42,418 nucleotides of DNA, taken from a virus. The position numbers and the translations under genes are program-made. Below, piece after piece: positions 12,245 to 25,968 of this stretch. The notes under the pieces are model-generated. The model ran no database searches. It worked only from the letters and a program-made list of their open reading frames with translations, and was not told where the DNA came from. The stretch covers positions 1-42,418 of IMG/VR virus record IMGVR_UViG_3300026026_000070. The stretch is one strand, 5' to 3'. Each line of letters opens with the position of its first letter. The stretch's first letter is position 1.

Positions 12245-12550
12245 ATGAGCGAGCACGAAAAAACACCGATCCCAGATGCATTCAAATTGGCGATGATCGA
12301 GAATTGCCAGGAGTGCCCAATACGAAAGCAAATGGAAGAGGTGGTCAAAGTGCTTGCAGAACGCAAAGGAGAGAAAGCCGTGTGGTCAAAAGTCTCGACA
12401 GTAGCAACTGCAATTGTGGGCATTCTTCTAGCAGCATTTTTAAACTACAAGTTTGCACAGTTTCGTCAATTGCAGGAAGACGTGGCGAAGCGCCTGAAGG
12501 AGTCGCAGGACAGCCATGCTTTGATACTCGAACGCTCTCAAAAGCACTAG
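12245..12550 (+). CDS. Single-pass membrane protein with a charged C-terminal tail
   Basis: 101 aa with a central hydrophobic helix (VSTVATAIVGILLAAFLNY) and a charged helical C-terminus. It is the last gene of the rightward arm. Confidence 0.55.
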   Translation: MSEHEKTPIPDAFKLAMIENCQECPIRKQMEEVVKVLAERKGEKAVWSKVSTVATAIVGILLAAFLNYKFAQFRQLQEDVAKRLKESQDSHALILERSQKH

Positions 12551-14544
12551 ACGTCCCGCAATTCGCCCCAGTTGGGGCCGCGTTCCTCATTCACGATCAA
12601 TGGCACTCGCAACCGTAGCGGTGTTTCCATGATGTGCTTCATTTCACGGAAGGCTTCGTTTGTGCTGTTGCCTGCATCGCTGAAATCCTTTTCATCGTGC
12701 ACAATCAAGCGAGGTACACCTGTTTGTGCATAGACTCCGCTTTGCCAGCACTTGAGCATTGCCACCTTGAACAAATCTGCTGCGCCACCCTGCAGGCGAC
12801 GATTGAGACTGCGGTAGGCATAGGCGCGCTTGATCTGCCCATACGTCAATAGTGCCTCATTGTAGGGCAACGGAGGATTGGCTAGCCTCGCGGCTGCGCA
12901 CTTCGCGCGGGTTACAGGTTCCCACAAATCGAATCGACTACGCCGACCAAGTAGCGTTGTGATGTAGCCGAGGCGCTCGACTTCGTCACAGCACGCAGCC
13001 ATTGTAGCGCGTACGAAAGGCACACCACGATGGTAGGCCGCAAGTATTGTCTTTGCCTCACGCAATGGCTTGTTGATCAACTCAGCTAGATGGCCTTCAC
13101 CCATGCCGTAGACGCAACCGAAATTGATGTTCTTCACTAGAAAACGCCAGAATTTAACAAGCTCTGGTGTGGACATGTCCCAACCTGCCTGTGGGCCTAC
13201 CACTTCATGTTGCACCCAAGAGTGGTAATCAGTGTTGGGATCTGTTGCATACTTACAGCGCGCTTCATCTGCGCCAGGACCTACAGCGTAATGGACGAGT
13301 AGGCGATATTCGATTTGTGACTCGTCAAACTTACGCCACTGCTTGTGACCACTGTCAGGAATGAATAGTCCACGAATTTTCTTCCCCCACACCTTGTCAC
13401 GCACCGGTATGTTTTGCAGATCCGGATCGTTGCTGCTAAAGCGTCCGCTGCGTGCTCCAGTCTCGTCTGCTCGCAATGGATTGAAGCTACAATAAACCTT
13501 GCCTTTGACGTGCGCGCCAAGTATGTAGTTTTCCACGAATGTGGTGCGTAGCTTGTCGAGCTTGCGGATTTCGTTGACTGCACCGGCAATGGGATTATGG
13601 CAAGCGACTAGGAAGTCTTTGTCGAAACTCGGCGCACCCTTCGGCGTTCTGTCGTAGGGATACCCGAATTTGTCAAAGGCTTTGGCGATGCTTGCAGCCG
13701 CATTGACGTTGACGTCGAAGCCAACTATTGATCGCAGCTTGGCTTGTTCGATTGTGGACGCTGCGAGCAAGTCGGAACGCACTTGCTCTGCACGCACTAG
13801 ATCAACTGACACGCCAGCAAACCGCATTTCAACTAGTAGCGGAATGAGTGCGCACTCCATGCGGAATAGGTCGACCAATTCTTCGCTTTGCAATCGTTGC
13901 CATTGCTTGTCGAGCACAGCGAAAGGCAAGTCAACGTCGCCTTCGGCGTAGGGTCCGACTAGCCGAGGTGGTGCGCGCCAGATGTTCATGCGTTGGTCAA
14001 CTCCCCCGCCATACCAAGCGCGGCACCAATCATAGAGCTGTGATGACGTCTTTCCTTTGTCGAGGTAGCGCTGTCCTAGATCGTCGAGATTGACGGTTGC
14101 AGCTTCGTCAAGTAGCGCTTCAGCGAATTCGACGTCGTATAGTTCGCCTTGCACGAGCACACCTTCGGCACGTAGTGAGCCAACATCGTACATGAGATTC
14201 GCGCCTAGTTTTGGTTGCTGTGGCCTAGCTAGCTCAACTGCTGCCCATGCGAGTACATGTTCAGGCTGAAGGTTGTAGCTTGCCTCGACAGTGTGACGAA
14301 TCGGGAAGTAACGTCGCCAGCCGTCGTCTGTGCCCACTGCAATGCCTACGAGGTGGCTGCGTCCGCGAGCCCAGCCTGGGCCATGTGCTGTCAGTTCAGG
14401 ATCGTAGGTTTCAACGTCAATTGCAAGAGCATGTGCGGCCGCAAGGCTAGGCAGATCGCGCGGCGTTTGCCAGCCTGTCTCGGGTATTGGCGGCATCAGT
14501 CGCCGCACTTCCGGGCGATCGTCGTGCCAGAAAAGCCCGGTCAT
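12547..14544 (-). CDS. Family A DNA polymerase with 3'-5' exonuclease domain
   Basis: Exonuclease motifs are AIDVETYD, NLMYD and YAEGD. Polymerase motifs are DESQIEYR (motif A), KNINFGCVYG (motif B), IVHDE (motif C) and QGGAADL. The chosen start, ATG at 14544, forms an ATGA overlap with the upstream stop; the ORF track begins at 14613. Confidence 0.9.
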   Translation of the reverse strand: MTGLFWHDDRPEVRRLMPPIPETGWQTPRDLPSLAAAHALAIDVETYDPELTAHGPGWARGRSHLVGIAVGTDDGWRRYFPIRHTVEASYNLQPEHVLAWAAVELARPQQPKLGANLMYDVGSLRAEGVLVQGELYDVEFAEALLDEAATVNLDDLGQRYLDKGKTSSQLYDWCRAWYGGGVDQRMNIWRAPPRLVGPYAEGDVDLPFAVLDKQWQRLQSEELVDLFRMECALIPLLVEMRFAGVSVDLVRAEQVRSDLLAASTIEQAKLRSIVGFDVNVNAAASIAKAFDKFGYPYDRTPKGAPSFDKDFLVACHNPIAGAVNEIRKLDKLRTTFVENYILGAHVKGKVYCSFNPLRADETGARSGRFSSNDPDLQNIPVRDKVWGKKIRGLFIPDSGHKQWRKFDESQIEYRLLVHYAVGPGADEARCKYATDPNTDYHSWVQHEVVGPQAGWDMSTPELVKFWRFLVKNINFGCVYGMGEGHLAELINKPLREAKTILAAYHRGVPFVRATMAACCDEVERLGYITTLLGRRSRFDLWEPVTRAKCAAARLANPPLPYNEALLTYGQIKRAYAYRSLNRRLQGGAADLFKVAMLKCWQSGVYAQTGVPRLIVHDEKDFSDAGNSTNEAFREMKHIMETPLRLRVPLIVNEERGPNWGELRDV

Positions 14545-15089
14545 GCCGCACGTGCAATGCGCTTGTGCGCGACTGCTAGCTGTCGAGGCGCAGCGGCCAG
14601 CACTTCGTACCATGCGCGACGCTCGACTGACACCCAGCTAGTGCTGAACAGTGGCCACACCTTCGGGCGAAGCATGCGTAGCAGATCGGGATTTGTCACG
14701 AACAATCGGAACAACTCAGCAAACCACTCATTGCTATTTGGGCAGTAGCCTGTCAAGGCTTCCGGATCTGTAGGTCGCCACAAATGCGAGAGTGTTCCGC
14801 CTTTTGCGCCGTGCTGCTTGTCAACATGATGGCCAAGCTCGTGTGCTAGAACGCCAAACGGCGTACGATCTACACTGTAACCTGGATAGCTCCAACATCT
14901 GCCAGCAGTGCCAATTGCTGCACAAGCATTTGGCCAAATGTCAATGGTTCCATTGCGGTAGTAGGCACAGACTCCGAAGTCACAGTGTCCTAGCCAGTGT
15001 TCGTTAATGACAGGTATTGCGACGCTATTAGCTCGGCACCATTCGTGCACGTGTTGTTTTCCTGCTGTGAGCAATTCTTGTTTTGTCAT
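14541..15089 (-). CDS. Zinc metallopeptidase, ImmA/IrrE-like (HExxH)
   Basis: HELGHH is followed about 40 aa later by NEWFAELFRLFVTNP, which matches the E..A..FA...L.P pattern of COG2856-type peptidases. It has ATGA overlaps at both ends. Confidence 0.5.
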   Translation of the reverse strand: MTKQELLTAGKQHVHEWCRANSVAIPVINEHWLGHCDFGVCAYYRNGTIDIWPNACAAIGTAGRCWSYPGYSVDRTPFGVLAHELGHHVDKQHGAKGGTLSHLWRPTDPEALTGYCPNSNEWFAELFRLFVTNPDLLRMLRPKVWPLFSTSWVSVERRAWYEVLAAAPRQLAVAHKRIARAA

Positions 15090-16012
15090 ATTCGCCCCAA
15101 GATCACACCGCGCGTACGTTCGCCCGTGAACCTGCATGGCTGTGGGTAGTCCGCGAAAGCTATTGCGGTTGCGATATCTTCTAGGCTCGCCAATTGACGA
15201 AGCGAGAAGCGTGCACCTGCAGGAATACCAGGAACCTCATAGGCTGCCGCCTCTGTGACGAGCTTGCTTTCGAGCAAGCGAACATCCTCGCCGAAGGGGG
15301 CGAGTCGCGCAAGTGCCTCGAAGAAGCCATCAGGCAACGCAGGTGCAGTCGCATGCGATAGCAGTGCCGTCAACGAAGGTGGCCACACTGTAGGGTGTAG
15401 TACGGTGCGAAGCCATCGCCCGTCGGCATAGTGGAACGTTGCCGATCGATCACACAGTTGTGCGTGCGAGGGAGTGTCACCCATGCGCAATAGCTCTCGC
15501 ACAGCTACTAGCGGAATGTTGATATCCACTGGTAATTTACTGCCACACCAATACTCGACTAGAATGGTATTATTTGTGGCGTATGCCGAGGAGTCGCGGA
15601 AGAGTACACCATTGAACGCTTGCCTAGTTGTGTCTGTGGATACGTAAGGTGCTAGGGTCTGGAGCGCCTGCAGGAAGGTAGCGTCTATGGGGCAGGTGAA
15701 GCCTTCGGGTACGACACGCGGAAACGTGTTGGCAGTGCACGGCACTGTTACTTGAAGTGGACCACTTTTGACTACTAGACCGTGTTCTGTTAGGTGCAGC
15801 TGCGCAGGTTCTACGCATGCTTCGATGGCCTTGACAAACAGATCGGCATTGGGACAAGCGGCCAAGTCGAGCACAACAGGCGCACAGATTGCAACAGTTC
15901 CGTTGAAGCTGACAGCGTAGCCACCGCCAATTGCAATATGCTGCAATGCTGGCATGTAGTCGCTTTTAGCGACTGCGCCTGCTACACACTTTAGCGCTTG
16001 CAGTAGCTCCAT
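15086..16012 (-). CDS. DNA sliding clamp-like protein (DnaN-like)
   Basis: The ATG at 16012 has GAAGGA 6 nt upstream. The N-terminus MELLQALKCVAGAVAKSDYMPALQHIAI resembles beta-clamp N-termini. At 308 aa it is co-operonic with the polymerase. Confidence 0.5.
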   Translation of the reverse strand: MELLQALKCVAGAVAKSDYMPALQHIAIGGGYAVSFNGTVAICAPVVLDLAACPNADLFVKAIEACVEPAQLHLTEHGLVVKSGPLQVTVPCTANTFPRVVPEGFTCPIDATFLQALQTLAPYVSTDTTRQAFNGVLFRDSSAYATNNTILVEYWCGSKLPVDINIPLVAVRELLRMGDTPSHAQLCDRSATFHYADGRWLRTVLHPTVWPPSLTALLSHATAPALPDGFFEALARLAPFGEDVRLLESKLVTEAAAYEVPGIPAGARFSLRQLASLEDIATAIAFADYPQPCRFTGERTRGVILGRI

Positions 16013-16032
16013 GCAGATCCTTCGTGATAGTG

Positions 16033-16078
16033 AAAAAACGTGGGAGGCTGCGCCCGGCATCGGATCGTAGCCTCCCAC
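16033..16078 (-). terminator. Intrinsic terminator: 10-bp perfect GC-rich stem followed by G and T6
   Basis: GTGGGAGGCT (16040..16049) pairs with AGCCTCCCAC (16069..16078). On the minus strand the hairpin is followed by GTTTTTT (16039..16033). The T-tract ends 21 nt before the clamp ATG. Confidence 0.75.
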
Positions 16079-16371
16079 TTGGTTCTAGGGAAGTATGTAC
16101 AATACTGTGCTTTTGTTCTCTTCTCTTTCCGGTCTATTACGACCGGGGAACCATGGCGCCACCTCCTTTCCGTAGGCTCAAGTTGACGGCTCGAACGTCG
16201 GTACACCGTAAGCCGCAATGGCTAGTCAGGCGATTGGGCCATGCCTGACACTGGCGTGCTATCCTGCACATTATGTACACTTGAGTTTCCTTGTAGTCTC
16301 GGTTTCGATTGTGCGCATAGCCTCGACTACGTTAAGCCTGTAGGCTTCACACATAAGCCGAATCCGGCAAT
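16033..16371 (-). ncRNA. Candidate noncoding RNA or leader bounded by a promoter and a terminator
   Basis: There is no sense ORF of 60 aa or more. Several hairpins and a 7-bp long-range helix are visible. A strong SD precedes a 5-codon mini-ORF (16154..16137). No known RNA family was recognised. Confidence 0.35.
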
Positions 16372-16377
16372 TTTAAT

Positions 16378-16406
16378 ATTATAGTGCGCCTGCCACTTGC
16401 TCAACA
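16378..16406 (-). promoter_or_regulatory. Sigma70-like promoter candidate
   Basis: The minus strand carries a perfect TATAAT at 16383..16378. The -35 region contains TTGTTGAGC, so the spacer is 15-18 nt depending on register. Confidence 0.45.
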
Positions 16407-16551
16407 AAAGTGTGCAGGCTAGGTGCTGGTTGCGGCTAGCTACGCGATCACAATCTATCGCTAGCAAGCCGACACAGCACAATATCCACATTGGCATTTG
16501 CTTGTGCCTCCCAAGGTGCCCGCGTCCGTCGACGCGAGCACGAGCGAGGCG

Positions 16552-17373
16552 CTAGCCTACGCTCGGCGAGTTTGCGCGCAGCCACGGGGGCAGATTCGCT
16601 GCACCTGCGACGGTGGGCACAGGCTGCTGCACAGGCGCAGTCGGAGCGATTACCGATGGCACTTGCGCGGCAGGGATCGGCATCTGTGTCTGCACAGGCT
16701 GCGACGGCGCAAAGGACGGCACTGCGCCGGGGGGCAGGTTGCTCGCAGCAGCGGGGGCAGGCTGCGCAGCGACGGCGGCGGGGGTGGGCTTATTGGCTGC
16801 GAAACCGCGCGGCAAGCGCGGCAGCCCAGTGGCGCTACGCCACTTGCTGTACTGAGTAGCTGCCGTTAACTCGTTGACAGGCTGCCCGTTGAGCGTCGGG
16901 GAGAATTGCTTGATCGCCGCGATCAGCTCATCCTTGCTTGGAGCTCGACCAAGTTGCTGCGAAAGCCCGTCGCAGTAGCTCCACACGAGCCCGCCGACAG
17001 TGCTGGCGCCAGGACGCGAGGGCACGGCAGGGGTTGCCGGCTGCTGTGCAGGTGCCGTGACGGCGGGGATCGAGGGTTGTTGCACGGGGGGAGCGGAGAT
17101 GGGTGCAGTCGGAACGCTTATCGTCTTGCTGGCTTCGAGCGCCTTGTTTGCGAGGTAGGTTTCGATCTGCACAAGCTCGCCAAGCTTGGCGTCGATGCTA
17201 GCGAGCAGGGTTGCGACGGCGGAAGTGGTGACGATGGATTGCGTGTTCTCGGTCATGGTCTGTCCTTCTTTCGTGGTTTTGTTGCTGTGTGACTTGTTGT
17301 TTGACTTCTTCGCTGGCTTGTGTGCCGGCTTCGAGGGCTGCGGCTTCTTAGCCGACTTCTTCTTTGTGGCCAT
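16552..17373 (-). CDS. Pro/Ala/Gln-rich protein with a Lys-rich histone-H1-like N-terminus
   Basis: 273 aa. The N-terminus is MATKKKSAKKPQPSKPAHKPAKKSNNKSHSNK, and SD GGAG lies 6 nt upstream of the ATG. An alternative internal start, MTENTQ, also has a GAAGGA SD. Confidence 0.6.
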   Translation of the reverse strand: MATKKKSAKKPQPSKPAHKPAKKSNNKSHSNKTTKEGQTMTENTQSIVTTSAVATLLASIDAKLGELVQIETYLANKALEASKTISVPTAPISAPPVQQPSIPAVTAPAQQPATPAVPSRPGASTVGGLVWSYCDGLSQQLGRAPSKDELIAAIKQFSPTLNGQPVNELTAATQYSKWRSATGLPRLPRGFAANKPTPAAVAAQPAPAAASNLPPGAVPSFAPSQPVQTQMPIPAAQVPSVIAPTAPVQQPVPTVAGAANLPPWLRANSPSVG

Positions 17374-17566
17374 ATTGTCTCCTCTGGAGTTGTACTGTCA
17401 ACTGTAGAATGTCGCGCTTGACCTTGCGGATGGTAGAAGATAGCGCGGTAACGTTTGCCTTTGTGCCTGCAGCGCGTGCAGTAACAAAACGTTCTTTTAC
17501 CATGCTTTGCAGGCCGCGCAATCGATCACGCAATAGGTACAGTTGGGCGTTAAATGATTCTTGCAT
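17348..17566 (-). CDS. Hypothetical protein (72 aa, helical)
   Basis: The ATG at 17566 has AGGAG 7 nt upstream. The ORF track starts at 17581. Confidence 0.5.
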   Translation of the reverse strand: MQESFNAQLYLLRDRLRGLQSMVKERFVTARAAGTKANVTALSSTIRKVKRDILQLTVQLQRRQYGHKEEVG

Positions 17567-17813
17567 CGTTACGCTCCTCATTGGTTGCTGTCAATAGTCG
17601 AATTGCGAGATACTTGCACGCTTGCAGGGTGGCGTTGTAGTCGTCACACTCGACTGTGTAGCCAGTGGTGTTGTAGTAGAGTCTGCGTAACTGCTCTATC
17701 GTCAATGCGCTGTAGGTTCGGCTAACGCACGCATCGCCTTCGATCGTGCCTGGCGTGCGAGGATTTAGGTGCAGCGCAAATCTACAGTCTGCTGTGTCGA
17801 TCACAATGCGCAT
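17550..17813 (-). CDS. Hypothetical protein (87 aa)
   Basis: The ORF lies in the operon orientation and packs tightly against its neighbours. Confidence 0.5.
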   Translation of the reverse strand: MRIVIDTADCRFALHLNPRTPGTIEGDACVSRTYSALTIEQLRRLYYNTTGYTVECDDYNATLQACKYLAIRLLTATNEERNDARII

Positions 17814-17844
17814 TGCTGTGCTCTATCAGGTGTTGGCTTCGCGG

Positions 17845-18054
17845 TCAAGTCTCGATTGCTTGCAGCTCAGGGATCCCATTCTTGCCGTGCGTGGCGCGCA
17901 ATCTGCGCAGTAACGCTGCTTGCCGCTCTGCAAGTGCTCTATTGACGATTACGTCTGCGTCTGCACGATAGTAGCCTGTGCCGAGGCACTGTTCACACAA
18001 GCCATCGGGCCTTTGCGTGCCGTGCCCGGTGCCCTTGCAGATATTGCAGATCAT
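17845..18054 (-). CDS. DnaJ-type zinc-finger protein (two CxxCxGxG motifs)
   Basis: The motifs are CNICKGTG and CEQCLGTG. SD AGGTG lies 5 nt upstream of the ATG. Confidence 0.6.
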   Translation of the reverse strand: MICNICKGTGHGTQRPDGLCEQCLGTGYYRADADVIVNRALAERQAALLRRLRATHGKNGIPELQAIET

Positions 18055-18144
18055 GTGAGCACCTGGAAGCCTTGCGCCGTTGCGTAGCTTCGCAGTACTT
18101 TGATGCGCGCGCTGCCTGTGTCGCTGGCACTGAGCGGTGTACGA

Positions 18145-18372
18145 TCATCGACGGGCATTGGCTAGCGACTCCACAATTGTTAGCTTGCAAGGCTGGCTAG
18201 CGTCGGCTTCCTGATATATGAGCACAGCAGTGCAGTAATTGCATTGCCACACAGTTACACTTCCGTTGCCGCGCACAGTCTTAACGATTGCGTCGCGTCC
18301 CCATGCATGCGCATTATTGAGCGATTCGTTGCGTACTAAGCAATTGCCTGACGGTGCGGGTGTTGCGTTCAT
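18145..18372 (-). CDS. Hypothetical protein (75 aa)
   Basis: The ORF lies in the operon orientation and starts 6 nt after the upstream stop. Confidence 0.5.
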   Translation of the reverse strand: MNATPAPSGNCLVRNESLNNAHAWGRDAIVKTVRGNGSVTVWQCNYCTAVLIYQEADASQPCKLTIVESLANARR

Positions 18373-18377
18373 TGTGG

Positions 18378-18626
18378 TTACTCCTCATCTTTGCGCTTGC
18401 CATTTTCGTCGACTAGTCCTGCGATGCACTCCAGGTGATCGAGTAGTGCGTCGGCTTCGCTGTACTTGTCCGCAATCTGGTCTAGTGCACTACGCAACTT
18501 GAGTGTCAGTGCTGCTACGTCACCATTCCCGGAATGCATACCTTTTGCAGCTTGGATTATGTCTTGGCACGCAGCAATGATGACTATTGCGCGTCCGGCG
18601 ATGCCGAGAGTTAGATCTAGGATCAT
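18378..18626 (-). CDS. Hypothetical protein (82 aa)
   Basis: It starts in an ATGA overlap with the upstream gene at 18623..18626. Confidence 0.55.
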   Translation of the reverse strand: MILDLTLGIAGRAIVIIAACQDIIQAAKGMHSGNGDVAALTLKLRSALDQIADKYSEADALLDHLECIAGLVDENGKRKDEE

Positions 18627-18883
18627 GGCTCAAATGGTCCAATGTAGACTGTGGTAGCGTCGAATGGACCGACATTGACTAGGCGCTCAATCGCACCTTC
18701 AACTGCGGCCGAGTCCAGCTCAGCGAGAAACGTATCGACGGGCAAGCTCGGCTCGTCACTTGTGCGCTCAGCAGGGACTGCAAACGCCCATGCGGGCAGG
18801 TCGAGGGCGAGGGCAGGACTGTCAGCTCGTGCTGCGCTCGTCAGGCCGCAGACCAGGATCGCGGTGCAGATGCAATTACGCAT
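18623..18883 (-). CDS. Exported acidic small protein (86 aa, Sec-type signal peptide)
   Basis: The internal ATG at 18883 gives MRNCICTAILVCGLTSAARA/DSPALALDL..., with an AxA cleavage-type site. The mature part is acidic. It lies inside the GC-rich insert. Confidence 0.5.
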   Translation of the reverse strand: MRNCICTAILVCGLTSAARADSPALALDLPAWAFAVPAERTSDEPSLPVDTFLAELDSAAVEGAIERLVNVGPFDATTVYIGPFEP

Positions 18884-19871
18884 GTTGCACGCGCGCCGCG
18901 ATCGCCTCTTGCGCCGCCACCTCGATCGCCCGGAGTGCGCGATCGTCTCCCGTCGCACGCACGATCGCAGCCGGCGCGCCAGTCTCGACTGACAGACCAT
19001 GGCGCACGCAGTAGGCGCGGATCCCACCGTCGCAGAGACCGGCACTCCGGGCATGCTGATACGTGACCTGGAGGCGCGGGCACATGATCGTCACGAGGTG
19101 GACGCGCCTCGCTTGCTTGTGAGTCTCATGCTCGCGTGCCTGCTCGGCTTCGACCATCACACACTTGCGCATGATTTCTGCGCGACACGCAGCGTAGGTC
19201 ACGCCGTGCTCCCACTTGCCGAATCGCGCCGCGAGGGCTGTTGGTATCGGGACCGACACGCCAGTGCGGCGCAGATCGATGCCATATCTCACGACCACGC
19301 GCGTCTCGCGGAGGCCCAGGACGTCACCGTCGAGTAGACAGCTCTGCTCGACTCGACCGCGCCAGTCGCGCGGCAGCCGGGCGAGGGAGATTGTCGCGAC
19401 CTTGTGCGCGAGGTGGGACCACAGGGTGACAGTCCGGGTGTCCGTCGTCGCGCCGTAGTTTTTCCAACGGCGCGGTCCGTAGCTGCGATGCCAGCTCTTA
19501 GAGTAGCTATCTCGTGATTCGTCATCCTGGCCACCAGTGCCGTAGGTGCACGTCGCCTCCGAGCTCGCGGCGAGGGAGTGCACGTGTAGGTGATACGCAC
19601 GACCAATCTTGCACGCGAGAGTCTCCCATCCGGCTTTGCGGCGACGCTGCTCGACTGTCCAGCGCTTCGCGCGAGGGATCCACTCCTCGCGCGTCGTCGG
19701 GCGCAGTGACGGATCGAGTCTCTCGGCTCGTGCTCTCAGGACCGCGGACGCGCGCACGTAGCGAGCATAGCGCTTGGTACTCGTGCCGCGTTTGCGCGTA
19801 CTGTACGCGAGTGCGTTACACGCTTTGACGATCTGCTCTACGTTTTCCGTGACATTCTGTGTTGTAGTCAT
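18876..19871 (-). CDS. Arg-rich protein of unknown function (331 aa) in the GC-rich insert
   Basis: It is the longest ORF in a stretch where every frame is open, which is a high-GC effect. It follows the operon orientation. I recognised no family motif. Confidence 0.55.
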   Translation of the reverse strand: MTTTQNVTENVEQIVKACNALAYSTRKRGTSTKRYARYVRASAVLRARAERLDPSLRPTTREEWIPRAKRWTVEQRRRKAGWETLACKIGRAYHLHVHSLAASSEATCTYGTGGQDDESRDSYSKSWHRSYGPRRWKNYGATTDTRTVTLWSHLAHKVATISLARLPRDWRGRVEQSCLLDGDVLGLRETRVVVRYGIDLRRTGVSVPIPTALAARFGKWEHGVTYAACRAEIMRKCVMVEAEQAREHETHKQARRVHLVTIMCPRLQVTYQHARSAGLCDGGIRAYCVRHGLSVETGAPAAIVRATGDDRALRAIEVAAQEAIAARVQHA

Positions 19872-19898
19872 GATGACGTCTTTCTATGGATGCCGGGG

Positions 19899-20051
19899 TT
19901 AGACCATCTTGATTCCGAGTTTGCGCAGTGCACGCTTCGCTGAGGAGTCGGCAGGCGGTGCTGCCATGCGGGCTTGCCACTCCTTGTAGCTTTGTGCGGC
20001 AAGTTGCTCAAATGTAAGAGCAGGTTTTGCGATCTTTTGTGACTTTGACAT
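19899..20051 (-). CDS. Hypothetical small protein (50 aa)
   Basis: Hand translation gives MSKSQKIAKPALTFEQLAAQSYKEWQARMAAPPADSSAKRALRKLGIKMV. It is below the ORF-track cutoff. Confidence 0.4.
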   Translation of the reverse strand: MSKSQKIAKPALTFEQLAAQSYKEWQARMAAPPADSSAKRALRKLGIKMV

Positions 20052-20059
20052 GATGTTTC

Positions 20060-20230
20060 CTACTCGTACAGATCGTCAAATGCATCGGACACAGTATCGT
20101 ACACTGACTTGGCGCTACGTGCACGAATGTAAAGCGTCATTTGCTCGACGTTCGAAAGCTCGGAATGATGCTTCGCAATGTAGCGATCGAGCACTACGCT
20201 GCTTGCCATGTCTGCCGTACAGATGAGCAT
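20060..20230 (-). CDS. Hypothetical small protein (56 aa, acidic C-terminus)
   Basis: Hand translation gives MLICTADMASSVVLDRYIAKHHSELSNVEQMTLYIRARSAKSVYDTVSDAFDDLYE. SD AAGGAG lies 7 nt upstream. It is the first gene after the repeat-rich intergenic region. Confidence 0.5.
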   Translation of the reverse strand: MLICTADMASSVVLDRYIAKHHSELSNVEQMTLYIRARSAKSVYDTVSDAFDDLYE

Positions 20231-20355
20231 ATCTGGACTCCTTTGTAGGTTTCGGCCGCGGTGCTATCGGCTAGGTCCCTTGCAGCAATGTGCTTGGCCT
20301 TACCTAGCGCGATGTCACATCTTGCCACCAGTGTCGACTTGCTAGCTGCGAGACG

Positions 20356-20384
20356 ATTCTACGCTATTGCAAATAGTCGGCCAA
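20356..20384 (-). promoter_or_regulatory. Sigma70-like promoter candidate flanked by operator-like repeats
   Basis: On the minus strand TTGGCC (20384..20379) is followed by a 17-nt spacer and then TAGAAT (20361..20356). TGCAAATAGT direct repeats lie at 20368..20377 and 20388..20397. Confidence 0.4.
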
Positions 20385-20531
20385 GTCTGCAAATAGTGCA
20401 AAATGCTGAAATCATTGATGTCGCTTAGCAGCATGTTACTTAAAGTGCGTAGTCGGCTACGCTATTTAGCCGCTAACTGCGAAGTAGTTTGCGCAGTTAG
20501 TGTGTAGCCAGTTACGCGCATGTAAGCTACG

Positions 20532-20738
20532 TTACAAAGTTGGTTGCGCAGTACGGCATTTCTTGCATAGCGTGTCATATTGCACAAAGCGGTGTGGAGT
20601 GCCCAGCCACGTGCCCGCGACTTGACGCGAATAGTCGCATCCTGGACACATTATGCAGCTATAGTGTACCTGATAGCCGAGTAGCTTTGGATCAAGTATT
20701 GATCGACAACTGGCCAAAAGTATGCGCGCGGCGATCAT
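20532..20738 (-). CDS. Zinc-ribbon small protein (68 aa)
   Basis: This uses an internal ATG of the 157-aa track ORF and gives MIAARILL...CIMCPGC...CKKC. It avoids overlapping the upstream 73-aa gene. Confidence 0.45.
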   Translation of the reverse strand: MIAARILLASCRSILDPKLLGYQVHYSCIMCPGCDYSRQVAGTWLGTPHRFVQYDTLCKKCRTAQPTL

Positions 20739-20748
20739 CGACACTCGC

Positions 20749-20970
20749 TCAGAACGGTATCTGTGTGTAGTCGATCCAATCCTCGCAGCCGACGAGCAGT
20801 ACACGATGCGGCGGGGTCTCGCCAAAGTGAATGCATCCACGCGCGTGCGGCGACAAGTCCAATGGTGCTTGCCACCACGTGCAATTGTAGCAGCAGTGCC
20901 ACAGTCCTTTGTCGATATACGATTGCTGGGCAACAATTGCGGCCAGATTGGTTTCTTTCTCAGAAGGCAT
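20749..20970 (-). CDS. Cys/Trp-rich small protein (73 aa)
   Basis: The ATG at 20970 overlaps the helicase stop by 11 nt. The protein contains HCCYNCTWW...C...C. Confidence 0.5.
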   Translation of the reverse strand: MPSEKETNLAAIVAQQSYIDKGLWHCCYNCTWWQAPLDLSPHARGCIHFGETPPHRVLLVGCEDWIDYTQIPF

Positions 20971-22594
20971 ATCCCCTCACTTCCGGGTATTGCTTGTTGA
21001 TCCACACCGCTATTGTCTTTGGTGTTCGCAGTTCGGGCAAGCGCTTGACAGCTTCCACAACTGTAGCTGGCGGTTGTGTGTTCGTATGCTCATGCCACCA
21101 CGTCTTAGCTCTGTGCTTTGGATAGCCATCGTGCTCAAAGCAAAGCCATTCGTGGAAGATGCGCAGTCCACAGTGGTAGCTCACTTTCAAGCTCTCTTTA
21201 GAGCCCGGCTTGGTGTGGACATTGTATGTCACTCGATCAACGGGCATATCCACAATCGCAGGAACCTCACTGCGCTTTAGTATGTCGTCGCCTGCTGCGC
21301 GTGCCTTGAAGCGTACCTTGATCTGGAAGGGTGCTTTACAATAGGGGCACACTCGCGCGCTAGCATGACAATAGCTGTTGCACGCTTCACAGACTTTGAC
21401 GGGCGCTTCTCCGTGCCCCTTGCCTTTCTTCTTTGGCGTAACAGGATCATTGATGGGGCCTAGTCGCCGCACATTGCCCGCAAAGTCAAGCACAAGACAG
21501 TTGGGCTTTTGTGATGCTTGTATAGCGTCCAGTCGCCCCCTGGTTGTGGATATGTCGAAGCCTGGCGCGTACACTGCGCGTGCTCCTCGGCCCAACGTCT
21601 GCACGTGCAAGCCTGGCGAGATTGTAGGCCGTAGCATGAGTATCAGATCGATCAACGGGAAGTCAAAGCCTGTAGTCAAGACTCCGTTGTTGAAGCATGC
21701 GCGAAACTCGCCAGCCCGATAAGCAGCTAACCGCGAGTCTCGCTCGCTGTCTGGCATCTTGCTGTGCACTACTGTAGCAGACACACCTAGTTCATTGCAG
21801 AATTGCGCGCAGTGTTCTGCGTGCTCGACACCTGCCGCGAATCCAAGCCAGTGTGCGCGATTACCACCAAGGCGCAGTGCCTCGGCAAGCGCAGCGCGGG
21901 TTACCTCGGCTTTGTCGACTGCGCCCTGTAGCTGCTTTTGGTTATACTCTCCTTGTCGAATTTGCACACCGTCAACCTGTAACTTTGTAGATGTCGGGCG
22001 CGCAATGAGGGGGCACAGGTAGCCTTCATCCACGAACCAGTTGAACACGGCGAATTCTGTCATATCTACTGCAACATCTGTAAATAGTCCGCCGTCTACA
22101 AGGTCACCTTGCCCTAGCCGATAGTGCGTGGCTGTCAAGCCAATTGTCTTGAGTTGCGGATTGGTCTTGCGCAGTTCTCGCAGGAACGCTTGATACATGG
22201 TGTCCTCTTTCGGGGAAACCAAGTGGCACTCGTCAATGATTACGAAGTCGATGAAGCCGAAGGCTTGCGGGCAAGCCACGGCAGAGCCGATGCCCGCAAC
22301 TGTGATGGCTGCATAGGTTTCTTTGCGGCCAAGTCCTGCTGAGTACACGCCGATAGGCGCTGTTGGCCACAGTCGCAGTATCCAAGTCAGGTCTTGCTGC
22401 AAGATTTCTTTGACGTGTGACAAGAGCATGCAACGTGTTCCGGGATAGCGCTGGAAAGCCTCAACCAAGAACTGCGCAATCACAACTGACTTGCCCGTGC
22501 CTGTGGGCATGGCAATGATCGGGTTTCCTGTGCCTTCGGCAAAGAATTGCCAGAGGCAATCAACGCCGTACTGCTGATAATCGCGCGGCTGCAT
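20960..22594 (-). CDS. SF2 DEAH-box helicase with a C-terminal zinc ribbon
   Basis: Walker A is MPTGTGKS and the DEAH box is IIDECH. The C-terminus carries CEACNSYCHASARVCPYC. Confidence 0.85.
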   Translation of the reverse strand: MQPRDYQQYGVDCLWQFFAEGTGNPIIAMPTGTGKSVVIAQFLVEAFQRYPGTRCMLLSHVKEILQQDLTWILRLWPTAPIGVYSAGLGRKETYAAITVAGIGSAVACPQAFGFIDFVIIDECHLVSPKEDTMYQAFLRELRKTNPQLKTIGLTATHYRLGQGDLVDGGLFTDVAVDMTEFAVFNWFVDEGYLCPLIARPTSTKLQVDGVQIRQGEYNQKQLQGAVDKAEVTRAALAEALRLGGNRAHWLGFAAGVEHAEHCAQFCNELGVSATVVHSKMPDSERDSRLAAYRAGEFRACFNNGVLTTGFDFPLIDLILMLRPTISPGLHVQTLGRGARAVYAPGFDISTTRGRLDAIQASQKPNCLVLDFAGNVRRLGPINDPVTPKKKGKGHGEAPVKVCEACNSYCHASARVCPYCKAPFQIKVRFKARAAGDDILKRSEVPAIVDMPVDRVTYNVHTKPGSKESLKVSYHCGLRIFHEWLCFEHDGYPKHRAKTWWHEHTNTQPPATVVEAVKRLPELRTPKTIAVWINKQYPEVRGYAF

Positions 22595-22597
22595 CTG

Positions 22598-22783
22598 TTA
22601 GCTAGTCCACGGTCGGCATGCCATGCAATCGCAGTCTTCATGCCGATCCACGCGCAGTTTCAAGCTGTCGCGCTTCACGTTCTGCGGGCTCATCCAATGC
22701 AGTAGTAGCTCATATTCGCGGCGATCAATCATTCGCATCTTGCCTGTAGCGAGCATATGCAACAGAATCGCCACGGGTGTCAT
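22598..22783 (-). CDS. Hypothetical protein (61 aa)
   Basis: It starts in an ATGA overlap with the nuclease stop at 22780..22783. Confidence 0.5.
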   Translation of the reverse strand: MTPVAILLHMLATGKMRMIDRREYELLLHWMSPQNVKRDSLKLRVDRHEDCDCMACRPWTS

Positions 22784-23736
22784 AGCTTGCGCACCTCGTA
22801 TTGTGGACAGCCTAGTAACTGGTCTTGCTTAGTCAGTGTTATGCCGTGGTTGCTACACTTCCACCATTCGCTGTGCTCCATGGGTGTCCCTGCGGCGCAC
22901 GTTCGACAGTTGCGTGCAGGTGCTGTTTTGCCATAGCATACTGGCGCTTGCTTGCAGAATTTGCATTGCCACCATGAAGGATCGTTCTTGATTCTGGAAG
23001 GTGGCTCAGTTGCGAAGATAATCTCGCGTGCTCTGTTGCTGAAGGCATCGCTGATTGCTTCGTCCAGTCCAATCAGCTCGCCATACAGTGAATCATCGTC
23101 TTTGCATACTGCTAGGTATAGTCCAGTGCTCAACTGGTAGGCTCGCATATACATTTGCATCTGTACATAGTGCACAAACTTGCTAGTGCGAACACCTTCG
23201 CCTGTGAAGGTTGCTCCGTCTTTGACTGCTACGTAGTCGTTCCAATTGCGTCCTGCAAGCTTGGCAAAACTGTCGCGTGAGTGTGTTTTGAATTCACACA
23301 GCACAGGACCATCGCAGTCGGGAATCTTTGTAGCTACGCCGTCGAGTGATCCGCCGAAGTGCCCTCCGTGCATTGTGATCTGGTATTGCTTGCCAGGCTG
23401 CGCGTATTGGTGCACTTCGATGTCCGCAGCGCCTAGCATGGCCACAAAGCGAGGCTCTTCAAGGTGTCCACGATTGAACAGTCGCAGGATGCGCCAATCA
23501 AGTGCAGGCTTGTTAGCCCAGTGGAAGTCGTACCAAAGTTCTCGTGAGCAATCATTGCCAATGCGAGAAGCACCTAGGTGCGATCGAAAGGGCGGCTCTT
23601 CACCACGATAGGCGTCTTCGGCAAGAGGCATCAATCCGCGCAGTAACTCGCGAAAGTGAGCACCTTGATCACGCTCGATGGCTTGCTTGATTGCGGCTAG
23701 GGTCTTGTGTGCAATGCAGATTAATGGATTGTGCAA
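22780..23736 (-). CDS. PD-(D/E)xK exonuclease, Cas4/RecB-like, with a C-terminal Cys cluster
   Basis: The D...E-x-K core is SLDGV...CEFKTHS, and the C-terminus carries CKFCKQAPVC...CRTC. The start is uncertain: a TTG at 23736 has GGAAGG 6 nt upstream, while the ORF-track start at 23754 lies inside the terminator T-tract. Confidence 0.7.
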   Translation of the reverse strand: MHNPLICIAHKTLAAIKQAIERDQGAHFRELLRGLMPLAEDAYRGEEPPFRSHLGASRIGNDCSRELWYDFHWANKPALDWRILRLFNRGHLEEPRFVAMLGAADIEVHQYAQPGKQYQITMHGGHFGGSLDGVATKIPDCDGPVLCEFKTHSRDSFAKLAGRNWNDYVAVKDGATFTGEGVRTSKFVHYVQMQMYMRAYQLSTGLYLAVCKDDDSLYGELIGLDEAISDAFSNRAREIIFATEPPSRIKNDPSWWQCKFCKQAPVCYGKTAPARNCRTCAAGTPMEHSEWWKCSNHGITLTKQDQLLGCPQYEVRKL

Positions 23737-23752
23737 TTGACACCTTCCTTGC

Positions 23753-23817
23753 AAAAAAAGCCCGTGTCCTCTGTGCGTTGGCTAGCTACCCCAGCATAGC
23801 TCTGCACAGAGGACACG
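23753..23817 (-). terminator. Intrinsic terminator: 14-bp perfect stem followed by GGC and T7
   Basis: CGTGTCCTCTGTGC (23763..23776) pairs with GCACAGAGGACACG (23804..23817). The minus-strand T7 run is at 23759..23753. It begins 11 nt after the DUF669 stop. Confidence 0.8.
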
Positions 23818-23828
23818 AGCAACCTAGT

Positions 23829-24491
23829 CTACCGACGCCAGGGGGGAACTGGCGCGCCCGTCGGCGCTGTGGGAACGGCAACAGGCCCCTGTGGCGCCCA
23901 GGGTGGCGACTGGGCAGGCCAGGGTGGCGACTGGGCAGGCGCCTGCTGCGTCGGTTGCTGCGCAAAAACAGCAGGTCCCTGAACAGAGGGAACAAACGCT
24001 CCACCTTGCGGATTGGGCGGCGGCACAGGCATTGCAGGCAGCGCGGGATTTTGGCCAAAGGGCGCTGCAGTCGGCGCTGTGTTGGCGGTGCTATCCTGCA
24101 CGTGCTTGACAGCTTTGATCACATTGCGAGGCTCGTAGCCTGCATCAGACTTTGTCCCGATCTTCGCCTTGACCGGAATGCCGTGCAATTGCGTGCTGTC
24201 GTTGAGCACAAGCACGCCAGTCGCGTGGCAGTACGCTGACAGCTGACGTTGGGCGATCTCGCTTGCCTGCACACTCTTATTCCACAGATTCAAGTTGTCG
24301 AACACCTTGCGGCCCTTGTGCTCACCGTCGATCACTTCTAACTCGAAGGACAGATAGCCGGATTCGTTGTCCTTCGTGGGCTTTGCCTCGCTGTTGCGAA
24401 TGGCCAGTATATACCAGCCGTCGGGCAATGGATCAAAAGCCTCTTGCGGCTTTACAGTGTTGGCGTCGAATGGTTGCGAAAACAGTTGCAT
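23829..24491 (-). CDS. DUF669-type SSB-like protein with a Pro-rich C-terminal tail
   Basis: The N-terminal pattern (FDPLPDGWY...SGYLSFELEVIDGEHKGRKVF) resembles DUF669. It sits next to a Sak4-like ATPase, which is the usual arrangement. Confidence 0.65.
   Translation of the reverse strand: MQLFSQPFDANTVKPQEAFDPLPDGWYILAIRNSEAKPTKDNESGYLSFELEVIDGEHKGRKVFDNLNLWNKSVQASEIAQRQLSAYCHATGVLVLNDSTQLHGIPVKAKIGTKSDAGYEPRNVIKAVKHVQDSTANTAPTAAPFGQNPALPAMPVPPPNPQGGAFVPSVQGPAVFAQQPTQQAPAQSPPWPAQSPPWAPQGPVAVPTAPTGAPVPPWRR
23898..23939. repeat. Perfect 21-bp tandem duplication (two copies) inside the DUF669 gene
   Basis: CCAGGGTGGCGACTGGGCAGG occurs twice in tandem and encodes PAQSPPW twice. Confidence 0.9.
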
Positions 24492-24493
24492 TG

Positions 24494-25171
24494 CTAGATT
24501 CCTCCTGTGATTTTGTTGATGATTGCGGATAGGTTCGGTTGTTCGAAGGGGTCGAGTCTGCCAGATCTGTCTTTGCCTTCGTACTGAAAATCAGCTTGCG
24601 TAGCCACTACGTGCTGTTTTTGCCCTTGTTGATTGCGGGCAACAAATAGCCGAAACACTTCGTCAAACAGGTAAGGAAGCTGCTGACCGAGTTTTTGCCC
24701 TGGCATCATAGGTTGAAAGCGCATGCCTCCTGTAGCTTCGTCTTTCGCCCACTCCTCCTTTGCAGTGATGTATACGTGCTTGCCGGCAAGGTCGCGGAAG
24801 GCACGTAGTAATTGCATCATTTGGTCAAGCATTTCCCCGTAAGCCTTGCGCGGATCTTTGTTGGTTGTCTTGAGTGCTTGCAAGAATACTTCTGCTAGCT
24901 CAGTTGAGGAGTCCACGCAGATTGTAGCAAACTGCCGTGCTTCCGCAGAGTCTGATACCCATCTCCACATCTCGCCCAGCTCGCCAATTGTGGATACAGC
25001 GGCACCGGGAATTTTATACCGTGCGAGTGACAGTAGTCCTGCCTCTGCGGATACGACAAATGGGCTAGGTGCTGTTGCGCACAAGGTTGTCTTGCCCGTG
25101 CCTGCAGTGCCGTAGCACAGTAGTTTAACGCCATTGCGGACTACTTGATCTGTTGTGAGCCACTTGATCAT
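24494..25171 (-). CDS. Sak4-like (AAA_24) recombination ATPase
   Basis: Walker A is CYGTAGTGKTT. The protein is 225 aa and starts in an ATGA overlap with the upstream gene. Confidence 0.75.
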   Translation of the reverse strand: MIKWLTTDQVVRNGVKLLCYGTAGTGKTTLCATAPSPFVVSAEAGLLSLARYKIPGAAVSTIGELGEMWRWVSDSAEARQFATICVDSSTELAEVFLQALKTTNKDPRKAYGEMLDQMMQLLRAFRDLAGKHVYITAKEEWAKDEATGGMRFQPMMPGQKLGQQLPYLFDEVFRLFVARNQQGQKQHVVATQADFQYEGKDRSGRLDPFEQPNLSAIINKITGGI

Positions 25172-25440
25172 AGGCCGTCCTTGTCGGTTCTCGGCACAGC
25201 GGCGATTTCTGCGCGCAACTGCGACAATGACTGTGCCGACAGGTCCACTATTTTGCGCAAAAGCAACGTGAGCGCAGGATCTGCGCGCAAGTCGTCAACT
25301 GCTTTTGTCCATGCGCGCGCAAGGTCACAGCGCGCGCGGCAAGTCGCTGCCCTCACTATTGCTTCATTCGCTGCAATTTGGGCAGCTTCGACATGCATCT
25401 GTGCTAGTTGTGCGATCTTTCGCGCAATATCGTCAGGCAT
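25168..25440 (-). CDS. Hypothetical helical protein (90 aa)
   Basis: The internal ATG (MPDDIARK...) lies 2 nt after the upstream stop. The longer track ORF would overlap the upstream gene. Confidence 0.5.
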   Translation of the reverse strand: MPDDIARKIAQLAQMHVEAAQIAANEAIVRAATCRARCDLARAWTKAVDDLRADPALTLLLRKIVDLSAQSLSQLRAEIAAVPRTDKDGL

Positions 25441-25442
25441 GG

Positions 25443-25856
25443 CTAGTCTTCCTTTGGCGGAACAAGTTCGACTGCTGGCGCGCCTGGCGTTGTGGTTAAG
25501 CACGTGTCCAGCAGTGCGCGTGCTTCCGCTGTCAGTTCGCGGTAGGCGTCTGTATTGAGTCCAGGCTTCCATTCAATCACGCTATCGAGTGACACGCGTA
25601 GTGCTGCAAGCGGCGCGCGCAAGGACTCGACTACGCGCGCGTCCACCTTTCGGACATAGGGGGTCTTGTATTTGAGTTGCCAGCCATCGGGCAACTCCGC
25701 TTTGTGCGTGCCTTCGGCCGTGTCAAGGTGTAGCATGCCGAATAGGTTTGCGCGCAGTGCTTGCTCATGCGCGATTAGCTTCTTGGCCTTCTCGGCTGCT
25801 CGTGCTGCTTGGTACCAAGATGCAAGCGCGTCCTTTTGTGCTGGGGTGAGATCCAT
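25443..25856 (-). CDS. Hypothetical protein (137 aa), first gene of the leftward operon
   Basis: The ATG at 25856 (MDLTPAQKDAL...) has AGGA 9 nt upstream. Confidence 0.55.
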   Translation of the reverse strand: MDLTPAQKDALASWYQAARAAEKAKKLIAHEQALRANLFGMLHLDTAEGTHKAELPDGWQLKYKTPYVRKVDARVVESLRAPLAALRVSLDSVIEWKPGLNTDAYRELTAEARALLDTCLTTTPGAPAVELVPPKED

Positions 25857-25893
25857 CGTCGAGATCCTTTGCTGGGGTTGAGGGTCAGCGACG

Positions 25894-25922
25894 ATTCCAG
25901 CACGATTCGAATTACGTGTCAA
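25894..25922 (-). promoter_or_regulatory. Leftward early promoter candidate
   Basis: On the minus strand a perfect TTGACA (25922..25917) is followed by a 17-nt spacer and then TGGAAT (25899..25894). Confidence 0.5.
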
Positions 25923-25934
25923 GAAGATTCTCCA

Positions 25935-25948
25935 TGGAATATATTCCA
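25935..25948. promoter_or_regulatory. Perfect 14-bp palindrome TGGAATATATTCCA (operator candidate)
   Basis: It reads the same on both strands. It lies between the divergent operons, 13 nt upstream of the leftward -35, and overlaps a plus-strand TATATT hexamer. Confidence 0.5.
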
Positions 25949-25968
25949 CTTGCTTTTTTCCGTCGGAC

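Follow-up and report, generated by a model that had tools for sequence, protein, structure and literature searches.

tRNA-like elements within mRNAs are already known as a kind. Precedents include tRNA-tufB co-transcripts, plant mitochondrial t-elements and mascRNA; the CCA-less tRNA precursors of phage T4 need host RNase P and RNase BN, and the C4 RNA of phage P1 and the CI RNA of phage P4 are RNase P-processed RNAs cut from the leader of their own operon. Here we describe a structured RNA of ~175 nt (16350..16175, minus strand) in the virus record IMGVR_UViG_3300026026_000070 of IMG/VR, whose whole stretch of 42,418 nt is called the window below. It is made of a 5' domain followed by a tRNA-like domain and lies upstream of the gene of a sliding-clamp-like processivity factor (the clamp). 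The t-elements of plant mitochondria, Haloferax and MALAT1 (mascRNA) likewise mimic the acceptor/T-arm half of a tRNA within a longer transcript at gene boundaries. In Haloferax, tRNA-like elements are cut by RNase P and tRNase Z, which releases the flanking RNAs with exact ends (PMC4946936). The phage domain resembles t-elements in that it lies inside an operon without a promoter of its own and, in eight loci, 3 to 6 nt before the clamp ATG. It differs from them in its setting (a double-stranded DNA (dsDNA) phage of bacteria), in a helix P2 that opens into a four-way junction rather than a cloverleaf, in carrying one of two large 5' domains and in its placement between a captured Shine-Dalgarno sequence (SD) and an SD-less start; its cleavage is only predicted. 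The structure of the RNA is solid, and its processing role is a prediction.

About 20 related loci (labelled L) were recovered by protein-guided searches of IMG/VR, JGI, ENA and Logan assemblies, with clamp identity of 62-86%. Two independent assemblies from other samples, L055 and L056, carry a gap identical to that of the window, so the sequence of the gap is not an assembly artefact. Eleven phage contigs carry the tRNA-like domain, and their copies were placed in a structural alignment (A5) made by hand with N-padded rows, which replaced a MAFFT alignment (A2) that had misaligned the helices. In A5, 98.8% of 320 informative cells are standard pairs, a percentage inflated by the fact that the alignment was fitted by eye to the structure; both sides have changed in 27 of the 33 pairs, and none of 500 shuffles reached any of five covariation measures. 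The helices run contiguously through the raw sequences, and pairing fell to 28-36% when the 3' partners were slid by 1-3 columns, which also argues against an alignment artefact. An 8-sequence version of the alignment gave the same covariation picture. RNAalifold on the hand alignment recovered six of the seven helices (it omitted the 2-bp P3 and added one P2 pair), and the minimum free energy fold of L038 alone contains the consensus helices except P3. The 7-bp long-range helix, internal hairpin and T-loop hairpin that had been pointed out in a first-pass annotation, made from the letters of the window alone, are therefore present far beyond chance, and all of them covary across the eleven loci. 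The strand is fixed to the gene sense, because G-U pairs (the last P2 pair in 5 of the 11 sequences) work only there. A coding explanation is excluded because helix lengths differ by non-multiples of three. Conserved single-stranded nucleotides are found in J1 (CAAA), in GCCAG and ACGG, in the T-loop and in the D-like loop, and the loop of hairpin A, GGCCCAAUC, is conserved in four loci. It was concluded that this is almost certainly a real, conserved and strand-specific structured RNA, as judged from the alignment. Coordinates of the domain and of the other features of the region are collected in Table 1.

Table 1. Features of the clamp-upstream region in the window, and classes of related loci at the same site.
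Feature	Position or loci	Strand	Basis or content
tRNA-like domain, 112 nt	16175..16286	-	eleven-sequence alignment A5
P1, acceptor-like helix, 7 bp	16285..16279 / 16183..16177	-	alignment A5
P2, 5 bp	16278..16274 / 16205..16201	-	alignment A5
D-loop-like hairpin	16269..16256	-	GUGC-AGGAUA-GCAC (consensus GYGC-AGGAYA-GCRC); alignment A5
P3, 2 bp (CC/GG)	16254..16253 / 16207..16206	-	alignment A5
Variable hairpin A	16249..16225	-	7-bp stem 16249..16243 / 16231..16225; alignment A5
Hairpin B	16223..16211	-	alignment A5
T-arm	16199..16185	-	GACG-UUCGAGC-CGUC; alignment A5
5' domain, type A	16287..16350	-	seven-sequence structural alignment A7
Clamp SD and start codon	SD 16023..16018, ATG 16012..16010	-	SD GAAGGA; letters; clamp = phrog_947
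Shared upstream segment	16501..16551	-	after the stop of the 273-aa gene: motif CGCCUCGCUCGUG, covarying hairpin 16539..16518, SD GGGAGG 16512..16507
Small protein gene, 56 aa (MPMWILCCVGLL...AHYNIKIAGFG...)	16327..16497	-	list of open reading frames; homologues in six relatives
Mini-gene module	16129..16170	-	SD GGAAAGGAGGT 16170..16161, ATG 16154, MVPRS, TAA 16139..16137, TAG; recurs in L040-42
Long hairpin	16033..16078	-	10-bp GC-rich outer stem 16078..16069 / 16049..16040 and inner pairs; G, then U6 16038..16033
Type A loci	window, L029, L030, L037, L001, L036, L045		45-56-aa reading frame, 5' domain A, tRNA-like domain
Type B loci	L038, L039, L044, L047		8-20-codon reading frame, different 5' domain, same tRNA-like domain
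Mini-element loci	L002/L010/L054		unrelated 65-nt tRNA-like element
Other-insert loci	L031, L040-42		other inserts at the site

The likeness to tRNA is found in the 3' part of the domain. The T-loop has 7 nt in 10 of 11 copies, with U1, C3 and G4 invariant and A5 nearly invariant, and fits the U54-N-C56-R57-A58 signature. The T-stem (4-5 bp) adjoins the terminal helix P1 (5-7 bp) to form a minihelix of ~11-12 bp, and the AGGAYA loop provides the GG expected of a D-loop. Both helices covary fully, which bears out the acceptor/T-arm minihelix noticed in the first reading of the letters. In L001, L036 and L045 the D-like loop has changed to AGAU jointly with a change of the T-loop to UGCGA; this joint change is a single event and is only suggestive of an elbow contact. 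We consider it probable that the architecture of the 3' domain is tRNA-like, imitating the elbow and the acceptor/T-arm half. The assignment to no known RNA family held: ARAGORN found no tRNA or transfer-messenger RNA (tmRNA) genes in the window and 10 relatives, and a search with all 4,227 models of Rfam 15 at E <= 10 gave nothing relevant in the window region or 9 related loci, with no match to RF00005 at this threshold. The covariance model R1, built from the eleven copies, found only these training members (the window among them) in 42 sources totalling 233 kb. Its matches at window positions 20291..20386 (E = 0.2) and in L007 (E = 0.004, antisense within the clamp gene) were taken as noise. 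A D-loop/junction/T-loop pattern had no matches in IMG/VR. Its single match in 185,579 prokaryotic genomes, at the 3' end of a Paraburkholderia open reading frame (ORF) and without structure, was judged to be chance. The GAGATCYGCAACGAANNGAA pattern gave four chance matches inside coding regions in addition to the true one in L036.

The fold is unusual in that a tRNA acceptor/T-arm/elbow half is joined to a different core. As in a canonical tRNA, the acceptor stem is continued by a T-arm with a 7-nt canonical T-loop; unlike in a tRNA, the D-like hairpin is set apart from the acceptor helix by a 5-bp P2 plus 4-5 nt, an anticodon arm and an encoded CCA are missing, and the loop of hairpin A varies in length and sequence. 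Phage tRNAs that are co-transcribed with mRNAs, such as those of T4, are likewise CCA-less, tRNA-shaped, located in an operon and dependent on host maturation enzymes if excised, but the RNA described here has no anticodon arm and is not a decoder. The tRNA-like domain of tmRNA has the same helix order (P1, P2, ..., P2', T-arm, P1'), and both RNAs show a three-way junction of acceptor stem, canonical T-arm and a long arm that replaces the anticodon stem; a short SD-led ORF downstream, in the window and L037, is a further likeness. In contrast to tmRNA, no tag frame inside P2, pseudoknots, CCA or resume codon are present, the D-analogue is located inside P2 instead of between P1 and P2, and the mini-ORF, missing from 8 of 11 loci, is not part of the RNA. 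The ARAGORN tmRNA search and the Rfam tmRNA models were negative. YrlA, the bacterial Y RNA-like RNA bound by Rsr/Ro60, also mimics the T-arm/D-arm elbow, and some YrlA RNAs are reported to be phage-encoded (PMC4201824). The acceptor-like stem of YrlA is a closed hairpin, with the Ro-binding helix formed by the ends, whereas here it is the acceptor-like helix that the ends form. Rfam was negative, and no Rsr/Ro60 or RtcB gene was seen among the window ORFs scanned (28 against PHROGs, 8 of those also against Pfam). An antisense target of the C4/CI type for the hairpin A loop was considered and dropped: complementarity in the window is at chance level (12 non-self matches at <=2 mismatches against 8.1 expected), and the Rfam C4 model had no match. 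The fold, the two alternative 5' domains, the phage context and the placement between SD and SD-less start are undescribed in Rfam 15 and in the literature searched, a scope that leaves aside the catalogue of 10,006 viral RNA candidates (PMC10690425). If confirmed, a well-supported class of structured RNA (11 members, 27 compensatory pairs, no Rfam 15 match) would be added to dsDNA phages.

The most telling comparative fact, missed in the first-pass annotation, is the position of the RNA relative to the clamp gene in most relatives. In the eight loci where the domain abuts the gene, the clamp ATG follows the 3' strand of P1 at the short distance given above, typically as G-CAA-AUG, and a usable SD is absent: duplexes with the anti-SD have energies of -0.2 to -5.9 kcal/mol, and those words that most resemble an SD are either buried in helices or wrongly spaced. 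At the empty sites (L028, L046 and L050) and in the loci with an extra module (window, L029 and L037), by contrast, the clamp has an SD whose spacing is normal or nearly so and whose energy is -5.5 to -10.2 kcal/mol; in the window this is GAAGGA, 5 nt ahead of the ATG. Every locus in which the RNA adjoins the clamp gene has lost the clamp SD. This raises the question of how an essential replication gene is translated when its SD-less start lies 3 nt past a stable fold. A second, unrelated tRNA-like element of 65 nt was found in L002 (3934..3998, the same as in L010 and L051) and L054 (1134..1198). This mini element is made of a 6-bp terminal helix P1, one long hairpin and a 5-bp T-arm (GUCGG-UUCAAGU-CCGAU), and in L002, L010 and L054 it stops 3 nt before an SD-less clamp ATG. 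It was undetected by ARAGORN and Rfam, and model R1 was also negative on L002 and L010. Because this geometry of helix and ATG recurs, a role in processing or initiation is preferred.

Tentatively, we favor as the best overall explanation a tRNA-like processing element within the operon mRNA that is excised by host tRNA-maturation enzymes. These enzymes would recognise the tRNA-like domain inside the polycistronic mRNA. The predicted cuts are one by RNase P where P1 begins on its 5' side (about 16286/16285) and one immediately 3' of P1 (about 16176..16174) by an activity of the RNase Z/BN or RNase E type. A stable tRNA-like RNA of ~110 nt would be released, and the operon mRNA would be punctuated, so that the mRNA downstream gains a new 5' end. 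For most relatives, cleavage on the 3' side is predicted 2-5 nt ahead of the SD-less clamp AUG, which would leave a leaderless or near-leaderless clamp mRNA. In the window, a second cassette (SD, mini-ORF, hairpin, terminator-like hairpin and new SD) would have been inserted between the RNA and the clamp gene, and because it separates the two, the clamp would use its own SD there; expression of the clamp, peptidase and PolA genes would depend on read-through of the 16078..16033 hairpin. Excision of the domain by tRNA-processing enzymes is itself put forward tentatively. If it or initiation by a tRNA mimic is true, mRNA processing of the tRNA-punctuation type, or tRNA-mimic initiation, would take place in a bacterial virus. 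A stronger form of the proposal, that the tRNA-shaped RNA has functionally replaced the SD of an essential replication gene, either through a (near-)leaderless mRNA made by cleavage or through ribosome loading assisted by the tRNA mimic, is rather doubtful. The cassette would then have landed between the clamp SD and the clamp ATG, and if true, this would be a bacterial-virus analogue of mitochondrial "tRNA punctuation" on a mobile RNA cassette.

Several observations weigh against the processing model. The domain is a non-canonical substrate for RNase P/Z: it lacks CCA, P2 replaces the normal tRNA core, and in most copies T-stem and P1 are separated by a 1-2-nt A bulge or by a fifth pair that is not Watson-Crick. 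The distance from the end of the RNA to the clamp ATG is 163 nt in the window. Recombination at gene boundaries could have left the constant CAA-ATG spacing as a scar, in which case it is not a functional distance; CAA-ATG also precedes the small ORF of this region. The closest relatives, L028, L046 and L050, lack the cassette and drive the clamp from an ordinary SD, so the cassette is not needed for clamp expression. Finally, the pairing support comes from an alignment fitted by hand, as said above, and the 5' domain of type A is strictly linked to the small ORF in seven loci, a linkage that hints at a trans-acting ribonucleoprotein (RNP) function and is unexplained by the processing model.

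The variation among relatives places the RNA in a mobile context. As judged from the comparison of loci, the 539-nt "gap" upstream of the clamp is an accessory cassette region in a leftward replication operon, a mosaic of four separately conserved minus-strand modules. The four modules are the 56-aa ORF, the ~175-nt structured RNA, the SD with mini-ORF and the long hairpin with a conserved tip. Every relative has the upstream segment (L001, L028-L031, L038-L040, L044-L047 and L050, cassette-free loci included), with the motif UCGCGCYUCGCUCGUG, a hairpin of 8-11 bp whose stem covaries and whose loop varies, and then the SD CCUGGGAGGCAC. At the empty sites (L028, L046/L053 and L050) this SD leads directly into the clamp start codon; at occupied sites it serves the small ORF or the mini-ORF, and the cassette sits between the SD and the clamp ATG. 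Motif and hairpin recall a boxA/boxB (nut-like) site, which, if real, could explain read-through of the downstream terminator. The parts occur independently: the RNA is found without mini-ORF or hairpin in eight loci and the mini-ORF without the RNA in L040-42. Cassettes that are present or absent between two conserved genes, with differing inserts at one site, are likewise known as phage morons or hyperplastic insertion hot spots. Here, in contrast, the payload consists chiefly of a structured RNA, inserted precisely between an essential replication gene's SD and start codon, and the cassette has no conserved promoter or terminator of its own. At the same site, L031 carries a different insert of 295 nt (2206..2500) that ends in a 10-bp hairpin (z = -4.7); this hairpin stops 3 nt before the clamp ATG, which is again SD-less.

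The 5' domain is found in two types. Type A consists of hairpin hp1 with a UACR loop (UACG-capped), helix Pa, a variable hairpin hp2 and an A-rich linker; in the relatives Pa encloses hp2 and a conserved internal loop, GCGAA / UGAGAU. In alignment A7 100% of cells are paired, 8 of 16 pairs have changed on both sides, and none of 500 shuffles matched this. The window carries a degraded copy, with UCGAG / GAGA as the internal loop and a decayed hp2. Readings of the GCGAA/UGAGAU loop as a hammerhead, K-turn or loop E were considered by eye; strand order and sequence are unlike a hammerhead, and no confident assignment was made. The type B 5' domain was located in L038 (1830..1918), L039 (1800..1890), L044 (1290..1384) and L047 (1360..1441). 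A CAAUCAACGAUAGCUCGCAAGAGCACUUAAUAACAUAGCU segment with a GCAA-capped hairpin is conserved in L039, L044 and L047 and more divergent in L038, and a TGGTAG motif is kept irrespective of reading frame. The upstream ORFs of type B loci have 8-20 codons, for example MYRRAAIW* and MRRRAVVW*.

Domain A overlaps the last eight codons of the small ORF. This 56-aa ORF starts 9 nt after the GGGAGG SD of the upstream segment and has homologues of 45-51 aa in L029, L030, L037, L001, L045 and also L036, which share an N-terminal MPxWxLCCVGLL and a C-terminal (S/A)H(Y)xxxxx(A/S/T)GFG. No PHROG family matches it. With an SD and with both termini conserved in six relatives, the ORF contradicts the first description of the stretch as wholly noncoding. 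The supposed largest noncoding gap concealed a conserved 56-aa gene and three independent RNA modules, which is a lesson for annotation.

That the small ORF and the type A 5' domain always go together in these seven loci also speaks for a trans-acting accessory RNA, possibly an RNP with the small protein, in a moron-like unit whose position beside the clamp is incidental. Such an RNA would act on a host or defence factor that reads the acceptor/T-arm/elbow of tRNA, for example as a sponge for toxins that modify tRNA ends or for tRNA-binding enzymes, and would be a candidate decoy for factors reading tRNA ends. Presence/absence polymorphism among close relatives, at a hot spot with other inserts, fits this idea; the conserved single-stranded nucleotides point to a defined tertiary fold and not to a mere cleavage signal, and the hairpin A loop is kept in the four loci mentioned above. 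We nevertheless consider it somewhat unlikely. No target was found, with the complement of the hairpin A loop at chance level in the window, in most loci the RNA lacks a promoter and a terminator of its own, type B loci have the tRNA-like domain but no small protein, and the loss of the clamp SD is left unexplained. A trans-acting role is compatible with excision by tRNA-processing enzymes and does not exclude it.

An element that acts in cis without cleavage is improbable. It would work by tRNA mimicry for SD-independent initiation or as a protein-bound operator that controls clamp translation. The helix that ends 3-6 nt before an SD-less ATG in eight loci, and likewise the mini element of L002/L054, would suit such an element. 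Replication genes of phage T4 (gene 43, gene 32 and RegA targets) are autoregulated via RNA operators at the start site. A stable helix 3 nt before the AUG, however, would be expected to keep the 30S subunit from binding as long as it is neither opened nor removed, and in the window, L029 and L037 the RNA lies 100-190 nt from the clamp ATG and yet is equally conserved. No bacterial precedent for natural initiation by a tRNA mimic is known to us, and this was also counted against it.

The first-pass annotation had read the region as a promoter-to-terminator noncoding unit, either a small RNA (sRNA) of ~340 nt that runs from a TATAAT at 16383 to a terminator at 16033 or an attenuator with MVPRS as leader peptide that gates the clamp, peptidase and PolA genes. 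All of the sequence elements it listed were found at their minus-strand coordinates by direct check of the letters, and the structured RNA and these elements are real; the parts are conserved separately, one of them is coding, and the promoter is unsupported. The perfect -10 at 16383..16378 exists, but it is part of CAC TAT AAT ATT, the codons His-Tyr-Asn-Ile of the conserved C-terminal motif of the 56-aa ORF, and it reads TATGCT in L029 and TCCGCC in L030. The -35 region matches at most 3 of 6 positions at the allowed spacing (16-18 nt), and a promoter scan made no minus-strand call upstream of the RNA in the window, nor in L029, L030 and L037. The nearest promoter-like site, TTGACA-16-GACAAT at 17401..17374, is in front of the 273-aa gene; for this reason co-transcription of the RNA with the operon is likelier than a stand-alone sRNA gene, and transcription of the gap most likely starts there, to go by the scan.

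The mini-gene was confirmed and is not a chance ORF. Its stop sits in the GUAAUA loop of a hairpin (CCGGTC/GACCGG, 16146..16129), followed downstream by an A/G-rich tract and UUGUACAUA to about 16094. L040-42 have MVPRR*, a covarying stem (CCGCCG/CGGCGG), the same loop and the same A/G-rich tract and UUGUACAUA; 48 of 60 nt are identical to the module of the window, compared with 65% in the clamp gene, and no tRNA-like RNA lies upstream of the module in these loci. L037 has an SD and MWLQPN* at the mini-ORF position, and L029 has only an SD-like tract. The mini-ORF/hairpin pattern gave no matches in IMG/VR. In L037, a tandem GTGATT repeat of four copies (1908..1935) was observed between the mini-ORF and the conserved-tip long hairpin. 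In L040 the mini-gene module is closely preceded by AATACGACT (1664..1672), the core 9-mer of the T7 promoter; it is probably a chance match, as no phage RNA polymerase was seen.

The long hairpin of the window folds with dG -28.6 kcal/mol (z = -5.4) and is followed by G and T6, as an intrinsic terminator should be; a simple terminator scan did not call it because its loop exceeds 8 nt. The U-tract is unconserved in homologues. U6 follows the hairpin in the window only, the L037 tail is ACUUUAACGG (U-tract absent) and the L029 tail is UAUCUUUCU (weak). The apical sequence CCGAUGCC(G/U)GG is conserved in L029 and L037 despite different stems, which makes the hairpin more than just a generic terminator. 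Judging by the tails, it seems to act as a terminator in this genome only; this would imply partial read-through into the clamp, peptidase and PolA genes. As had been noted, the hairpin ends 21 nt before the clamp ATG with room only for a ribosome-binding site, and this is present (GAAGGA).

The perfect -10, the SD-led mini-ORF and the strong hairpin with U6, all present in the window, speak for the sRNA or attenuator model; a terminator-like hairpin also follows the mini-ORF module in L040-42, and an alternative CUUCCC/GGGAGG pairing (16092..16087 with 16076..16071) can be drawn by eye. We consider the model quite improbable. The -10 lies inside a conserved ORF and is itself unconserved, the modules separate in relatives, the U-tract is specific to the window, the peptide differs in L037 and is absent in L029, and no conserved antiterminator was found.

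A decayed or non-RNA feature, be it a tRNA pseudogene in decay, a tRNA 3' fragment of the attP kind or a structure at the DNA level like a replication origin, would account for the resemblance of T-arm and acceptor to the 3' part of a tRNA gene and for the adjoining replication genes, but is hardly credible. The 27 compensatory pairs across seven helices show ongoing selection for the fold, the G-U pairs can form in the sense RNA strand alone, an anticodon arm is lacking, and among 185,579 genomes the pattern scan turned up nothing but the one chance match. The attP/integration idea was dropped, with no integrase among the window ORFs scanned.

The window is a siphovirus-like genome of ~42 kb, and its minus-strand stretch 26036..12547 is a replication operon that encodes a Sak4-like annealing protein, SSB, a Cas4-type exonuclease, a helicase, the 273-aa protein, the clamp, a putative metallopeptidase and PolA. 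The clamp matches phrog_947 (DNA polymerase processivity factor) with E = 3e-48 and is <=44% identical to counterparts in Pseudomonas, Stenotrophomonas and Variovorax siphophages. A queuine-tRNA-ribosyltransferase-like gene is annotated beside the clamp gene in most of the best-matching annotated records. Among the window ORFs scanned, neither an integrase nor an RNA-handling enzyme was seen. BLASTN distant searches with three versions of the region gave no nucleotide match in 50,697 GenBank phage records. The "peptidase" (198 aa, 14541..15137, minus strand) has an HELGH zinc-metallopeptidase motif and overlaps the clamp gene by 52 nt; no significant Pfam or PHROG family match was found for it.

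The region 16025..16380 folds better than shuffled sequence (z = -3.18). The gap at 16013..16551 had been called the largest of the genome. This holds only when ORFs below 60 aa are ignored, and 19872..20531 is longer by the same criterion. This second long minus-strand stretch without large ORFs contains small SD-led ORFs at 20230..20060 (56 aa) and 20051..19899 (50 aa), and the ~300 nt at 20531..20231 hold a promoter-like TTGGCC-17-TAGAAT at 20384..20356.

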